Positions 22,155 to 30,420 of a stretch of 64,000 nt of DNA are shown here, one piece after another (within the stretch, counting starts at the first letter, position 1; each line of letters begins with the position of its first letter). The position numbers and the translations under genes are program-made. The notes beneath the pieces are model-generated. The model searched no databases. It was not told where the DNA came from and saw only the letters and a list, made by a program, of their open reading frames with translations. Origin of the DNA: an uncultured Bacilli bacterium (GTDB taxonomy: Bacteria; Bacillota_I; Bacilli_A; RF39; UBA660); contig CAKONF010000003.1 of assembly GCA_934097015.1 (NCBI GenBank), positions 630 to 64,629 on the forward strand, given 5' to 3'.

Positions 22155-22829
22155 ATGAAAAAGAATATTAAATATATATTATTTGTTGTATTTATGTTTG
22201 TTTTTATTAATAATGTTAATGCAGAATGTTCTTATCAAGATAGGAAAGATTTATTAGAAAGAGCAAAAGAAGTTGAAGTGTTTTTTGAACCTGATTTGAA
22301 TAATAAATATTTTACTTTTAATTTATATAATTTAGATAATGATTTATATGTTGATATAGTTAATGGTAAGACTAATGAGAGTAAATTAGTTTATAGTTAT
22401 GACTTAGTAGATAATCATTATAGTTTTATAGATAATAATATTAGTGATATTATTACTTATAGAGTAAATATATATTCTAGTAATAGTGAATGTTATGGTA
22501 ATAAAATGACTACTAAAACTGTTGTTAAGAAAATAATTAATAATTATTATTATATGGATATATGTAAGGGAATAGAAGATTATACTTATTGTAAACCATT
22601 ACTTAATAATAAATTTAGTATTAATGATGAAACTATTAGAAAAAATATAAGTAAATATAGAGATAGTTTGAATGTTAAAAAAGATGATAAAACAGTTAAT
22701 AAATTTGGTATAAAAGATTTAATTAATATACTTAAAAAATATTGGTATGTTGTTTTAATTATTGTTTGTATTTCTATTGGTTTAATAGTTGTTATTAAAA
22801 TCAATAAAAAAAGAGGTGAATTGATTTGA
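22155..22829 (+). CDS. Hypothetical exported protein (signal peptide plus C-terminal TM anchor), first gene of the Tad-linked cluster
   Basis: MKKNIKYILFVVFMFVFINNVNA|E signal-like N-terminus and a terminal helix VVLIIVCISIGLIVVI. The stop overlaps the next start (TTGA). Confidence 0.6.
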   Translation: MKKNIKYILFVVFMFVFINNVNAECSYQDRKDLLERAKEVEVFFEPDLNNKYFTFNLYNLDNDLYVDIVNGKTNESKLVYSYDLVDNHYSFIDNNISDIITYRVNIYSSNSECYGNKMTTKTVVKKIINNYYYMDICKGIEDYTYCKPLLNNKFSINDETIRKNISKYRDSLNVKKDDKTVNKFGIKDLINILKKYWYVVLIIVCISIGLIVVIKINKKRGELI

Positions 22830-25588
22830 TTAGTAAAAAAAATAAATTAATAGTATTTATTGTTTTTGTTGTACTTATTGGATTAAGTGTATTTTTTGTA
22901 AGTAAAAGAGAAAATACTGTTAAAAGTAATACTAGTGATAGTAAAAAGTATTTAGTATCTTATAATGGTGGAAGAAAGACTGAAACTTGTGATAAATACT
23001 TTGATGATGATGAAACTAAATTTTATAGTTATAAGAAAGTTGATGAAGGATACCCTTTATTTATTTATAGTCATTGTGCTTGGAATATTAGTGATTTAGT
23101 TAATAATGGGGAAGTAAGTGATGCTAACAAAAAAGAAGCTTGTGATGTTTATAAGGAATATGTTAGTGATAAAAGAATAAGTGATAATGATGAAGTGTGG
23201 AATTATAATGCAAATTGTGAAAAATATTTTGAAAAACCAGAAGATAAATTATATGTTTCATATTATGACCCTTATGATAAAAAAAATAAAACATGTGAAG
23301 AACTTAAGGTTTCAATTGAAAATGATTTTGTAAAATATAAATGGATTTATGATAGTGTTTATTTATCTAAGATGAAATGTCCTGATATTGATAGTTCTAA
23401 AAAATATGATGTTGTTTCAACTAGTTTTGATGCGACTGGATCTTATGGTATGAATTGTAAGATTAATGGAGTGGAGTATGCAACTGAGACTAATGTTTGT
23501 TCTTATAATTTAAAAAGAGATAATAGTGGTAATATAAGCGGTACAATTAATTTACCTGATTCGACTTCTGGTAATGATGGAAAAGGTATTATACAAAGTG
23601 GTACTTATAAGAAATTTATAGGTTGGAGTAGCGATAAAAGTTGTAATTCTATTGCTATTAGTCAAGATGATATAAAAAATGGTAAAAAAACAATTACTGT
23701 TGATAATAGCAAATATGTTTCAAGATATTATGCTTGTTTTGATCAAAGTCAAAGTGGTACAGTTGATGATTTAACTAAAGTATATAATACTTGTGATTCA
23801 GCTGGAGATTATGATGCTACTTTAACTAGTAGTATAAGAATAACTGATAAATATAGTTCTACTAATGGCATTTCTGGCGAAAGTATAAGTGGGACAAAAA
23901 GTGGGAAGAGTTATACGATAAACAAATATTGTTATATGAAATGTACTGAAACATTTAATTATACTTATCCTGCTATATTTGAAACTGTAAAGTCTGGGAC
24001 ATATTTTGAACTTTTATATACACCTCAAGTTAATGCAACTTATACTTGTACAGAAACGTTTAAATATAAGGAATGGGAACAAGATTACAATACTGCAATT
24101 GAAAATGAGAAAAAAGCTTATGTTGATTATATAAATTCTATGTCTATTAGGGGAATTTCTAGTTCTTCTCCAACTGATGAAGTGTGTTATCATAAAATAG
24201 ATGCAAAAGGTAATACTACATATTATTATTATCAAACTGTATCTACTACATATCATAAATATGATGAAACTACTTTTTTGATAAAAGATAAATATTGTGA
24301 AGAAAAAGGCGAAAGTATAGATAATTCAAAGGAAAGGTTATTATCGTCAACTGGTTTATCGCGTATTACTGATGATAGTATTTATAACAATGCAAAGAAT
24401 AATAGAAAAAATTTAGAAAAAATGAATAATGAAGTTTGTTATACTGTGTTAGATAAAGATAAGATACAAAGTGAAAATTATTATAGTGTTAATCCACAAA
24501 TAAAATTAGAATATGATGCAGATAAGACTATAAATAAATTAGATTCTAATGCTAGAAATGTTTTATTAAAATCTACCAAATACTATGAGGATGACACTGG
24601 TTCTTATAGTGAAAATAATAATTATAAAAAAATAGATAGTAAGACAAATTATCAAATTAATTATTTAGATAAAACAGATAGTTTTGATGCTTATAATTAT
24701 GGGAATGACAAAACAATTTATAGAACTAAAAAAATGAATTTTAATTTTGATACAGAGTATAATTATTATACTGAATTTTATACTGGTGCTATTTATAATA
24801 GTGAAAAGAAGAATACTATTAAGTTAGGTAATGTTTTTCCTATTACTTTAAGTAGTAGTGGGAAGAAAAATATATCTTTTGAAATAGTAAAAGATGGTAT
24901 AACTAGTGCTGTTAAAAAAGAATTAGATAGTAAAGATACTAAATATACTTGTACTTATAATGTTAGTAATGATGCTGTTATTTTAGATAAGAGTACTAAA
25001 AATAATAGTGATGATGAAAAGAAATATAAAACTTCATTTTTTGTAAGACCTATTGCTGTTAATGATGTTGACCCTAATAATAGATTAGATAGTGGTTTAT
25101 TGGGCGCTAATTGGGCTAGTAGAAAAGGTCAATTATTAATAAAAATTATTGAAAATAAATCACAAGGAAATAATACTTATAATCCAGATAATTTAGAATA
25201 TTCATTTACTTTAAATGCTGAGTCTTTAGATAAAATAAGAGATTATAATAAAAGTCATAAATATGATGAAAAAATTGATACTTATTTTGAATGTAATGGA
25301 CTAGGTATGGAATGTGAAAGTAAGTTTTTAAATGAATTATTAAAAGGCACATATGGTAATGTAAATGGAAGTATTAGTAATGGTAGAAATGCTAGAAAAT
25401 ACTATATTGGTGGTAAATGGTATAGTACTGATTCATTATTATCAAGTAAAGATTTTGTAGAAGTTTCTAGTGGTACTAAACATACTAAGAGTGAAGTATA
25501 TGGTGTTTGTAATTCATCTTGCAATGATGATGATAGTGCTTGTTATGAGTGTTTATATAAAAAAGTTAATGAGGGAGTATTACCATGA
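22826..25588 (+). CDS. Large (920 aa) N-terminally anchored, Cys-containing extracellular protein, unclassified
   Basis: Long uninterrupted ORF with a single N-terminal TM helix, translationally coupled at both ends. No motif recognised. Confidence 0.65.
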   Translation: MISKKNKLIVFIVFVVLIGLSVFFVSKRENTVKSNTSDSKKYLVSYNGGRKTETCDKYFDDDETKFYSYKKVDEGYPLFIYSHCAWNISDLVNNGEVSDANKKEACDVYKEYVSDKRISDNDEVWNYNANCEKYFEKPEDKLYVSYYDPYDKKNKTCEELKVSIENDFVKYKWIYDSVYLSKMKCPDIDSSKKYDVVSTSFDATGSYGMNCKINGVEYATETNVCSYNLKRDNSGNISGTINLPDSTSGNDGKGIIQSGTYKKFIGWSSDKSCNSIAISQDDIKNGKKTITVDNSKYVSRYYACFDQSQSGTVDDLTKVYNTCDSAGDYDATLTSSIRITDKYSSTNGISGESISGTKSGKSYTINKYCYMKCTETFNYTYPAIFETVKSGTYFELLYTPQVNATYTCTETFKYKEWEQDYNTAIENEKKAYVDYINSMSIRGISSSSPTDEVCYHKIDAKGNTTYYYYQTVSTTYHKYDETTFLIKDKYCEEKGESIDNSKERLLSSTGLSRITDDSIYNNAKNNRKNLEKMNNEVCYTVLDKDKIQSENYYSVNPQIKLEYDADKTINKLDSNARNVLLKSTKYYEDDTGSYSENNNYKKIDSKTNYQINYLDKTDSFDAYNYGNDKTIYRTKKMNFNFDTEYNYYTEFYTGAIYNSEKKNTIKLGNVFPITLSSSGKKNISFEIVKDGITSAVKKELDSKDTKYTCTYNVSNDAVILDKSTKNNSDDEKKYKTSFFVRPIAVNDVDPNNRLDSGLLGANWASRKGQLLIKIIENKSQGNNTYNPDNLEYSFTLNAESLDKIRDYNKSHKYDEKIDTYFECNGLGMECESKFLNELLKGTYGNVNGSISNGRNARKYYIGGKWYSTDSLLSSKDFVEVSSGTKHTKSEVYGVCNSSCNDDDSACYECLYKKVNEGVLP

Positions 25589-29635: not shown

Positions 29636-29637
29636 TT

Positions 29638-30420
29638 ATGTTTATAGAAGCTGTTATAATAATTATATTAATATTTATTGTTCTTGAAGTGACTGGTAGT
29701 ATTAGTTTAAATAAATTTGTTAAAGATAATCAAGAATATTTTAAAACATTAAAAGAAAGTGATTATGAGTTTTTACTTAAAGCAAGATATGGTGATGGAA
29801 TAGATTCTGATAGATTATTTTCTGCTAGAATAAGAGATGGTGCTATAGTAATGGTACTTTGTATATTCTTGTTTATTAATAATTTAGATTATACTAAAGT
29901 TATTGTTTCTATTGTAGCAGGATTTGGAATGTTTAAATTGAGTTATATTAAACTTAAAAATTACTATAAAGCACATTTGCATGAAATTGATTCTATGCTT
30001 CCATATTATTTAAAAAGTTTAGAAATATTAATTCAACATTATACTGTACCTGTTGCAATTGGTAAGAGTATAGAAGATGCTCCTAAAATATTTCAAGAGG
30101 GTTTAAAAGAATTACTACAGAAAATTAATGCAGGTGATTCTAGTATAACTCCTTATATGGATTTTGCTAAAGAATATCCTGTTAGAGATTCTATGAGAAT
30201 GATGAGACTTTTATATAGACTAGGTCTTGGAAGTCAAGAGAGAAAACAAGAACAATTACTTCAATTTTCTAGGTCTATTTCTAGTTTGCAACAAAAAGCT
30301 AGAGAGACTAGATATAAAAATAGACTTGAGAAAATGGAAAGTAAAACTATGGTTATGTTAGTTTGTACTGGTGTTGGAGTAATGTTATTATTAATTATTT
30401 CAATAATGAATATGTTTTAA
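29638..30420 (+). CDS. TadC-like platform protein (GspF/T2SSF family)
   Basis: Same architecture as TadB, starting 3 nt after it. Confidence 0.65.
   Translation: MFIEAVIIIILIFIVLEVTGSISLNKFVKDNQEYFKTLKESDYEFLLKARYGDGIDSDRLFSARIRDGAIVMVLCIFLFINNLDYTKVIVSIVAGFGMFKLSYIKLKNYYKAHLHEIDSMLPYYLKSLEILIQHYTVPVAIGKSIEDAPKIFQEGLKELLQKINAGDSSITPYMDFAKEYPVRDSMRMMRLLYRLGLGSQERKQEQLLQFSRSISSLQQKARETRYKNRLEKMESKTMVMLVCTGVGVMLLLIISIMNMF

Follow-up and report, generated by a model that had tools for sequence, protein, structure and literature searches.

By sequence comparison, the seven genes g1 to g7 at positions 22155-30420 of a 64,000-nucleotide stretch of DNA from an uncultured Bacilli bacterium (contig CAKONF010000003.1; the whole 64-kb stretch is called the window here) belong to a large family of clusters in Bacillota that is marked by the Pfam family DUF5411. 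The explanation that we favour, and whose chances of being right or wrong we hold to be about evenly balanced, is that the locus is a minimal, vertically inherited chromosomal form of the Bacillota branch of Tad-like (type IVc-related) machines, and that it serves as an energy-driven surface display system or appendage for attachment. An earlier note on this DNA, made from the letters of the sequence, had rightly named the kind of machine as Tad-like, as the CpaF relatives of g5 and the plasmid homologies of g4 and g6 bear out. The locus is no unique oddity: a widespread DUF5411-marked system is present here in its minimal chromosomal form, and operons of that kind have already been flagged computationally (PMC9523054). 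Nor is the kind of system new. Within a Tad-like family catalogued only as DUF domains and in one computational prediction, this locus is the most reduced variant known. For this organism the searches covered the 64-kb window, and the absences given below apply to the window or to the locus. The seven open reading frames (ORFs) are as follows, with lengths in amino acids (aa) and TM for a transmembrane segment.

22155..22829, + strand: g1, 224-aa type I membrane protein (Sec signal VNA/EC, four-Cys ectodomain, C-terminal TM and KKR)
22826..25588, + strand: g2, 920-aa Cys-rich extracytoplasmic protein (N-terminal two thirds variable, C-terminal third conserved)
25585..26730, + strand: g3, 381-aa DUF5411 protein (Pfam PF17424, E 1.9e-49)
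26784..27629, + strand: g4, CpaB/RcpC-like bitopic protein with an N-terminal TM and a beta-clip domain (weak RcpC match)
27630..28721, + strand: g5, 363-aa secretion ATPase of the CpaF/TadA-VirB11-FlaI clade (Pfam T2SSE, 1.2e-28)
28739..29635, + strand: g6, polytopic membrane protein, predicted as a highly divergent T2SSF/TadB-like half of the platform (transitive homology)
29638..30420, + strand: g7, polytopic membrane protein, predicted second half of the platform (homology to the C-terminal half of fusion proteins)

Conservation of the cluster, its motor and its platform

All seven ORFs were re-found with the coordinates, the strand and the overlaps that the earlier note had given, namely TTGA at 22826-22829 between the g1 stop and the g2 start and ATGA at 25585-25588 between g2 and g3. 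The other gaps are 53 nucleotides (nt) between g3 and g4, 17 nt between g5 and g6 and 2 nt between g6 and g7, while g4 and g5 abut, and nothing resembling a terminator was found from g1 to g7. The operon is real and not a chance arrangement, because among 84 related loci, which were mapped from species-representative genomes and metagenome contigs, g3-g4-g5-g6-g7 are kept in this order in 59, and 46 of those 59 also have g1 upstream. A comparison across related genomes had been proposed in the earlier note for the seven genes, and the co-occurrence thus holds for g3 to g7 in order. A g2 homologue of 720-1630 aa is nearly always found between g1 and g3. The distant loci L085 and L087/88 retain g2-g3-g4, with g1 also present in L085 and the ATPase in L088, and their flanks differ. 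The alignment with a 97%-identical relative (L006) breaks down just past the stop codon of g7, so that the cluster has its 3' boundary there, and since this boundary is sharp the downstream gene at 30770-32350 lies outside the system. In L006, g7 is followed by a gene for a 967-aa protein and then by rimM and trmD, and in L001 rimM follows directly; the cluster keeps a stable synteny with housekeeping genes even where divergence is deep. Among public sequences the nearest relative is a metagenome-assembled genome (MAG) from the human gut labelled 'uncultured Bacilli bacterium' (CAKOOU010000003), in which g3 is 97% identical. The remaining relatives, also MAGs, carry the labels Bacilli, Tenericutes, Mollicutes or Erysipelotrichaceae, together with some evident taxonomic mislabels. 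When a pattern scan was done with the DUF5411 alignment, DUF5411 relatives were found in 444 species-representative genomes.

The median identity to the window proteins was 80.5% for g5, 66% for g7, 63% for g6 and 48.5% for g4, and it was 27.5% for g1 and about 25% for g2. For comparison, the medians were 43% for the neighbouring phosphoesterase, 36% for the neighbouring CPBP protease and 43% for FtsW of the same genomes, and the ATPase was still 74-83% identical in genomes where FtsW was 37-43% identical. Tandem duplication of g1-g2 was found in L040, L052, L059, L069 and L070, and in L052 and L070 g3 is duplicated too, which suggests interchangeable surface cassettes that would be served by one motor. 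The motor and the platform are under unusually strong constraint, and g1 and g2 diverge quickly and are duplicated.

The motor is g5, and its place in the CpaF/VirB11 clade is well marked in its sequence. It carries the Walker A motif SGETGSGKT and the His box GHNILSTIHS, and its best solved relatives in the PDB are Caulobacter CpaF (7e-20), VirB11 (1e-16) and FlaI (3e-15). Its best NCBIfam models are VirB11, TadA, TrbB and FlaI, the VirB11 and TadA matches lying below the equivalog cut-offs; the GspE models of NCBIfam score far below those of VirB11 and TadA, and the SpoIIIAA model is missing from the top 25 NCBIfam matches. With the motifs present, a T2SSE match of 1e-28 and CpaF nearest in the PDB, the CpaF call of the earlier note for g5 was borne out, and g5 is a TadA/CpaF-type extension ATPase, as expected of a Tad system. 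In the SpoIIIA feeding-tube system SpoIIIAA is followed by AB-AH, and gene order and content differ from that here. In tblastn of two plasmid CpaF-type ATPases against the window, g5 was the sole match. The nearest plasmid-borne relatives of g5 are Bacillota proteins labelled 'CpaF/VirB11 family'. When the PDB was searched with the single sequences of g5, g6 and g7 and with family profiles of g1, g3, g4 and g6, the matches were known ATPase relatives of g5.

A fuller DUF5411 cluster is carried by a Priestia koreensis plasmid (NZ_CP061869) and by Bacillus thuringiensis pHT73 (NC_020249). It consists, in this order, of genes for a polytopic protein of 166-172 aa, an SLH-domain protein, a large protein, DUF5411, SAF/RcpC, a ParA/AAA_31-like ATPase, a CpaF-type ATPase, a T2SSF-like protein, a g7-like protein and DUF4320, and in pHT73 an insertion sequence element and an 88-aa gene separate DUF4320 from the rest. 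With hidden Markov models (HMMs) of the window families, homologues of g2, g4, g5, g6 and g7 were found in Priestia koreensis with E-values of 9e-14 to 5e-61, the counterpart of g3 being DUF5411 in Pfam and RefSeq, and homologues of g3 to g7 were found in pHT73 with E-values of 1.4e-6 to 1e-47. The g2 match in Priestia koreensis is a 993-aa protein (E 9e-14), and the 849-aa protein of pHT73 gave no match to the g2 HMM. In tblastn with the Priestia koreensis DUF5411 protein, 365 plasmid records were matched, 360 of them from Bacillus.

These plasmids bear on g4 and on the platform. The match of g4 to Pfam RcpC (7.9e-6, 26.2 bits) is under the curated cut-off of 28.8, and its match to NCBIfam TIGR03177 (3e-5, model positions 3-219 of 262) reaches 23.4 bits against a cut-off of 71; the PDB entry of RcpC, 9gzr, gave an E-value of 1.9 with the g4 family profile. 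The g4 family HMM, in turn, found the SAF+RcpC proteins of the Priestia koreensis plasmid (6.5e-39) and of pHT73 (1e-47). The earlier CpaB call for g4 is thus supported by homology to the plasmid proteins and falls short in the Pfam and NCBIfam scores, and g4 appears to be CpaB/RcpC-like on evidence that is weak but consistent. For g6 the family HMM found a protein of the Priestia koreensis plasmid that RefSeq names 'type II secretion system F family protein' (4e-15), and within the aligned region this protein has a Pfam T2SSF match of its own (3.4e-5). T2SSF was also matched by 2 of 41 distant g6 relatives in Pfam. The gene that follows the T2SSF gene is homologous to g7 in both plasmids (1e-16 in Priestia koreensis and 1.5e-14 in pHT73).

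An exhaustive search brought in relatives of about 500 aa in which the N-terminal half is g6-like and the C-terminal half g7-like, so that they are natural fusions of the two (P0172, P0187, P0198, P0204, P0209, P0220, P0227 and P0233). In hhalign g7 aligned to the C-terminal half of these fusions with a probability of 99% (E 2e-18), and 2 of 10 such relatives that were scanned gave weak T2SSF matches in the first half. The link between g6 and g7 emerged solely through a diverse alignment that contains the fusion proteins. PilC/GspF is a two-domain protein, and because the fusions mimic that layout the best reading of g6 and g7 is that of a highly divergent platform which is split in two. The partnership of g6 and g7 is shown by the fusions, and the homology to T2SSF would be a transitive one.

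Surface proteins and pilins

The three genes upstream of g4 had been described in the earlier note as anchored proteins that fit no family. The topology of two of them was found as claimed, g1 having a signal peptide and a C-terminal TM and g3 a single N-terminal hydrophobic segment. In g2 there is one N-terminal hydrophobic segment, as the claim of an N-terminal anchor requires, but in most g2 orthologues it looks like a cleavable Sec-type signal by consensus rather than an anchor, and there is no wall anchor. The g1 family conserves C25, C113, C137, C146 and N129 in the orthologue alignment and ends in the pattern F.K.Y..Y, a TM and KKR. No consistent Pfam match was obtained in 32 g1 orthologues, and g1 had no match in Pfam or NCBIfam and no sequence match in the PDB. 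The conserved region of g2 spans about residues 620-860 and contains the motifs F..R.VS.NN..PN.R and EYSFTL; no Pfam domain was found in 39 members of its family (g2 and 38 others), its AlphaFold2 model is mostly beta with a predicted local distance difference test score (pLDDT) of 69, and Foldseek against the PDB gave nothing below E 0.03.

In g3, residues 1-133 match positions 1-133 of the 134 of the PF17424 model with 167.5 bits against a cut-off of 30, and PF17424 is present in all 75 homologues. Most g3 orthologues are 133-160 aa long and consist of the domain alone, and the form in the window adds a lineage-specific C-terminal extension of 250 aa. The N-terminus MKE(S/A)xWGYW(L/I)I.LG is almost invariant in the lineage, and the N-termini of the Bacillus and Priestia DUF5411 proteins are MQPPKFVVIML... 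and MSIPKMGILAM.... The AlphaFold2 model of g3 (pLDDT 79.5) has a helix at 3-48, two short helices and three strands at 86-129, followed by a second alpha/beta domain; the best Foldseek match in the PDB had an E-value of 0.26, and the profile search of the PDB was also empty. Thus g3 has the helix and sheet architecture of a type IV pilin but neither the class III signal nor a match to the pilin fold, and the N-termini of g1 and g2 are of the Sec type and not of class III. None of g1 to g3 was placed in a pilin or TadE family by Pfam or NCBIfam, and for g2 and g3 the same was true of Foldseek against the PDB. The profile searches and the structure prediction with Foldseek that had been proposed as a check on the three proteins therefore moved g3 into DUF5411 and gave nothing for g1 or g2 by profile and nothing for g2 by Foldseek, so that the absence of a known family stands for g1 and g2 and falls for g3.

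Motif scans were made of all ORFs of at least 25 aa in the window and in 89 related loci with 10 kb on either side. No class III (G/FTLxE), Flp-like (G/xxxxEY) or A24 (GxGDxK) signature was found in the cluster; the scan for Flp-type pilins in the window and the 89 loci gave spurious matches only, and no membrane protein with GxGDxK was found in the window or within 10 kb in the 89 loci. Pfam A24 had no match among the 58 window proteins that the Pfam scan took in, and a motif scan of the window for S26/SipW-like peptidases was negative. A scan for TasA-type signals gave nothing consistent, and the same was true when the gaps between g3 and g4 were read in three forward frames in 10 relatives. 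Neither TadZ nor TadE/F/G was matched by any cluster protein in Pfam or NCBIfam, and tblastn with the TadZ-like and DUF4320 genes of the plasmids gave no match anywhere in the window. The motif scans, Pfam and tblastn thus agree with the earlier finding that Flp, prepilin peptidase and TadZ are lacking at the locus. The accompanying statement that no pilin is visible holds for the locus and not for the window, where one canonical pilin stands by itself.

58905-59351, + strand: orphan canonical type IV pilin, MNKG/FTLVE (motif scan, Pfam N_methyl)

This gene lies 28 kb downstream of the cluster between cdaA-cdaR and pgm-glmM, and the order cdaA-cdaR-pilin-pgm-glmM is found in both relatives that were examined, with no assembly genes alongside. 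Its homologues number more than 200, and the best 120 of them are 60-100% identical. In 5 of the 89 loci, among them L001, L007, L026 and L065, a class III pilin-like ORF is present no further than 10 kb from the cluster, and in L026 the ORF lies directly upstream of g1. The orphan pilin could be a candidate subunit that acts in trans.

Proposed mechanism, alternatives and neighbouring genes

In the mechanism that we propose, a hexamer of g5 would work under a membrane platform that is split into the two polytopic proteins g6 and g7, and g4 may form a ring or conduit on the outer side of the membrane, by analogy with RcpC in diderm Tad systems. The DUF5411 protein g3, with its short polar N-terminus, long helix and beta-sheet, would be the conserved, pilin-shaped extracytoplasmic part that is moved by the motor. 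A fast-evolving cognate pair would be formed by g1 and g2, in which the C-terminally anchored four-Cys protein g1 is probably the membrane partner of the large Cys-rich g2, and the conserved C-terminal third of g2 may dock to the machine with the variable two thirds directed outward to bind ligands or act as an adhesin. Taken together, the machine would use energy to assemble, display or extend a surface structure by which the cell attaches in the gut. A filament subunit and a peptidase would either be supplied in trans, the orphan pilin being the candidate for the subunit, or this reduced form may no longer polymerise a classical pilin.

Several observations weigh against this reading. There is no pilin, peptidase or TadZ in the locus, and the window holds just the one orphan pilin. 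The DUF5411 family is without the conserved Gly(-1)/Glu(+5) of a class III signal, the DUF5411 homologue of pHT73 has no Gly ahead of its hydrophobic segment, and Foldseek found no likeness of g3 or g2 to pilins, pseudopilins, PilO or PilY1. Residues 728-796 of g2, which are its most conserved stretch, were modelled with low confidence. No direct match of g6 or g7 to T2SSF/GspF was found in Pfam, NCBIfam or the PDB, so that the earlier description of the two as GspF-like is kept through relatives and fusions and not through a match of their own, and no paralogy of g6 and g7 was detected when close orthologues only were aligned in hhalign. Finally, adhesion and surface display are what we infer from the architecture and the evolutionary pattern only. 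The earlier note had offered two possibilities, either that the three anchored proteins replace the Flp/TadE/F/G set or that something else is exported or assembled, and both remain.

To our knowledge, all type IV filament machines that have been studied polymerise pilins that are processed by a peptidase. A Tad-like motor that is found across hundreds of uncultured gut species, with no recognisable pilin, peptidase or TadZ in the locus, puts this rule to the test, and an alternative is that the machine works with no class III pilin or peptidase at all. The motor, the split platform and the CpaB ring would then act on a non-pilin complex of DUF5411, g1 and g2, and the DUF5411 systems would be a distinct class of machines of monoderm Bacillota derived from type IV filaments and, in gut Bacilli with reduced genomes, a near-essential organelle, the latter being proposed because the motor is conserved well above FtsW. 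If this were true, the organelle may serve for attachment to partner cells or the host or for the scavenging of nutrients or DNA. We regard this alternative as unlikely, while giving it real weight.

An alternative that we also consider improbable, with several facts in its favour, is that this is a split but otherwise ordinary type IV pilus system, in which the cluster polymerises class III pilins encoded elsewhere, such as the orphan pilin, with a peptidase also encoded elsewhere, and g1 to g3 are priming or tip accessories comparable to minor pilins with PilY1. A canonical pilin (G/FTLVE, N_methyl) is indeed encoded in the same window, it is about as strongly conserved as the motor if the best 120 of its more than 200 homologues are taken, and it has no adjacent assembly genes in the window or in the two relatives examined. 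Pilin-like ORFs near the cluster in five relatives, above all the one directly upstream of g1 in L026, and the fact that g5 is the sole match in the window to the plasmid CpaF-type ATPases point the same way. Against this, the ATPase belongs to the CpaF/VirB11 clade and not to that of PilB/ComGA, the pilin lies 28 kb away within a housekeeping operon, and a pilin is nearby in only 5 of the 89 loci; a comG or pil operon of its own, which may exist in another part of the genome, would also take the pilin away from this machine.

We know of no need in monoderms for a type II secretion system (T2SS) in passing the wall, and this counts against the idea, which we rate as rather improbable, that the cluster is a T2SS-like exporter in which a DUF5411 piston pushes g2, with or without g1, through the wall with neither filament nor adhesion. 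That g1 and g2 are encoded with the machine and duplicated as a pair, and that most g2 orthologues have a Sec-type signal and no wall anchor, would fit such an exporter, as would the label 'secretion-related' that a classifier gave to related operons (PMC9523054). But no pseudopilin set, GspL/M (Pfam, NCBIfam) or peptidase was found, and the combination of CpaB/RcpC with CpaF is the signature of Tad and not of T2SS.

It is decidedly doubtful, in our view, that the machine is a competence organelle which takes up DNA for an auxotrophic lineage with a reduced genome, like the Tad pili of Micrococcus luteus and Liberibacter. In its favour are two ComEA genes and ComEC that lie 4 kb downstream in the window, the near-essential role that is suggested by a motor conserved far above FtsW, and the precedent of Tad-dependent transformation (PMC4322843 and PMC8513845). 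The adjacency to comE is not kept, however, as rimM/trmD come after the cluster in L001 (directly), L004 and L006 (after one large gene); the plasmid versions have no competence genes nearby, and large hypervariable surface proteins would not be expected of such an organelle. We hold it to be very improbable that the cluster was domesticated from a conjugation or mating-adhesion module of Firmicutes, or that it is a channel or appendage system specific to sporulation. Although the ATPase homologue stands behind a large adhesin gene on pZB18 and on a Paraclostridium and a Peribacillus plasmid (with VirD4 on the first two and VirB2 on pZB18 and the Peribacillus plasmid), and although CotJB/CotJC and YunB are encoded in the window and a SpoVE/FtsW-type gene and a sigma factor just upstream, no relaxase, VirB4 or VirD4 lies near the cluster, the g6 and g7 HMMs miss the membrane proteins of pZB18 (the one module tested), the housekeeping synteny is stable as described, and SpoIIIAA is not among the best NCBIfam matches of g5.

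If we return to the Tad-like display machine that we favour, a constrained motor and platform together with surface proteins that diverge and duplicate form the pattern of an important organelle for contact with a host or partner in an abundant gut lineage. The locus gives a context to the orphan families of g1 and g2 and to Pfam DUF5411 and DUF4320, and the homologous clusters on plasmids of the cultivable Bacillus cereus group (pHT73) make the question testable. The retention of a CpaB/RcpC-like protein in a monoderm and the extreme conservation of the motor in gut bacteria with reduced genomes are further points of interest.

The surroundings of the cluster contain other features.

22103..22131, + strand: candidate promoter of the sigma-70 type upstream of g1, TTTAAA-17-TATAAT and an extended TG (10/12 match)
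21436..22068, - strand: CPBP/Rce1-like intramembrane glutamic protease, divergent from g1 (Pfam Rce1-like, 4.5e-16)
30770-32350, + strand: g8, 526-aa secreted protein with a camelysin/TasA (SipW-type) signal region, LVGLTYAYF (PF12389, 2e-6)

The promoter is weak evidence, since promoter-type matches of 10/12 are not enriched in the window (113 found and 119.6 expected in shuffled sequence). Within the cluster of some relatives, the g3-g4 gap is enlarged to 190-390 nt (L032:6713-6950, L035:10408-10595, L036:10408-10794), and a conserved stretch in these gaps, which forms no consistent ORF, could be a regulatory RNA or a gene remnant. In 39 of 55 loci the CPBP protease is found no more than 0.8 kb from g1, and its NCBIfam matches include the CTERM-sorting proteases MrtJ and MrtS. 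The C-terminus of g1 (22700-22829), with F.K.Y..Y, TM and KKR, could be a substrate of this protease, and a CPBP gene also lies near the CpaF/VirB11 gene of plasmid pZB18 (L090). That the CPBP protease and the metallophosphoesterase are integral parts of the system throughout is not supported, as both are missing from L085 and from the plasmid clusters. The gene g8 was rejected as a pilin or cargo, as the homology to the 97%-identical relative stops past g7 and the relatives have a SpaA-type protein or nothing in that place. About 160 nt upstream of the gene at 30770, beside a small stem-loop, there is a homopolymer of eleven G (30601-30611, + strand), which is the sole such run in the window, with 0 expected in shuffles, and which is possibly a phase-variation tract.

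The DNA of the window is chromosomal and comes from a member of Bacillota with a very low G+C content of about 23%, and it contains a class B RNase P RNA, a 6S RNA, a tRNA cluster and the housekeeping genes recA and uppS along with the sporulation genes cotJB/cotJC and yunB. At 32905-37885 an ATP-dependent DNA ligase and Ku (a non-homologous end joining pair on the - strand) come before ComEC and two ComEA paralogues in tandem; these genes lie 2.5-4 kb downstream of the cluster, and the adjacency is absent in relatives. Sporulation-type genes at 5339-6509, 9637-10356 and 18472-20298 encode CotJB, a CotJC-like Mn-catalase, YunB and a protein of the FtsW/SpoVE family, the last of which adjoins a gene for a 238-aa sigma factor just upstream of the cluster. 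From these genes, the low-GC lineage may form spores. In relatives, genes for M23 and M50 peptidases are found just before rplU, an arrangement that spoIVFA and spoIVFB also have in B. subtilis.

Comparison with known systems

Among the nearest plasmid-borne relatives of g5 are the ATPases of conjugative plasmids of the pLS20/pZB18 type, with about 31-34% identity. The best ATPase match is on the DUF5411-bearing Priestia koreensis plasmid, and three plasmids with an adhesin context were examined beside it, namely pZB18 (L090), unnamed2 of Paraclostridium bifermentans (L094) and pA of Peribacillus (L095). In these three the CpaF/VirB11-family ATPase has a fixed arrangement that parallels the architecture of the window cluster, in which three small proteins stand between a large isopeptide or thioester adhesin and the ATPase, and two membrane proteins of about 240-280 aa come after the ATPase. 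VirD4 is present on pZB18 and the Paraclostridium plasmid, and VirB2 on pZB18 and the Peribacillus plasmid. The g6 and g7 HMMs gave no match to the membrane proteins of pZB18, the only conjugation module tested, and the pZB18 module has no DUF5411 or CpaB homologue.

The DUF5411 clusters of the two Bacillaceae plasmids, from Priestia koreensis and pHT73, have the same gene order as the window cluster. They add the 166-172-aa protein, a TadZ-like ATPase and DUF4320 and have the SLH-domain protein in the place of g1, and no match to the extra components was found in the window by tblastn. The first gene of the plasmid clusters (L091:461-979 and L096:5516-6016) encodes a conserved SPGDTKM motif and an N-terminal Asp, which recall the two Asp motifs of A24 peptidases, and its product is possibly a divergent prepilin peptidase; the Priestia koreensis protein had no Pfam match. 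In the searchable corpus of literature on DUF5411, DUF4320, RF39 pili and B. thuringiensis plasmid pili, DUF5411 and an operon of this kind are mentioned by one paper only, that of Miller et al. 2022 (PMC9523054). It predicted purely in silico, with a gene-embedding classifier, a 'secretion-related' operon of 8-9 genes in Roseburia, Ruminococcus and Eubacterium, to which no function is assigned. Compared by its description, that operon shares with the window cluster CpaF, a PilC/GspF-like protein, DUF5411 and unannotated surface proteins, and it differs in being from Clostridia, in its 8-9 genes and in having an internalin-like protein, which was not detectable here.

With PilY1 and the minor pilins of type IVa systems, or the GspK-I-J tip of T2SS, the likeness is one of functional analogy only. 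Both have, next to small anchored partners and a motor, a large protein exported by Sec that is conserved in its C-terminal part and variable in its N-terminal part. Unlike in those systems, the partners in the window do not have class III signals, and no similarity of sequence or fold was found.

The closest comparison is with the Tad/Flp systems (type IVc), for which the tad locus of A. actinomycetemcomitans, the cpa locus of C. crescentus and the monoderm systems of B. breve and M. luteus served as the comparison set. According to the review of Pelicic (PMC6916266), a monoderm Tad machine comprises a pilin along with two minor pilins, a peptidase, two platform proteins, an ATPase and TadZ or TadG, and RcpC is missing from the known monoderm Tad machines. 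The window locus is without Flp, TadV/CpaA, TadZ, TadE/F/G and a secretin, its platform proteins are too divergent for the T2SSF model, and it adds DUF5411 and two families that have no known domain. What it shares with Tad/Flp is a CpaF/TadA-clade ATPase that is followed by two separate predicted platform proteins and accompanied by a CpaB/RcpC-like bitopic protein, all in one operon, and unlike the known monoderm Tad loci it keeps this CpaB/RcpC-like protein.

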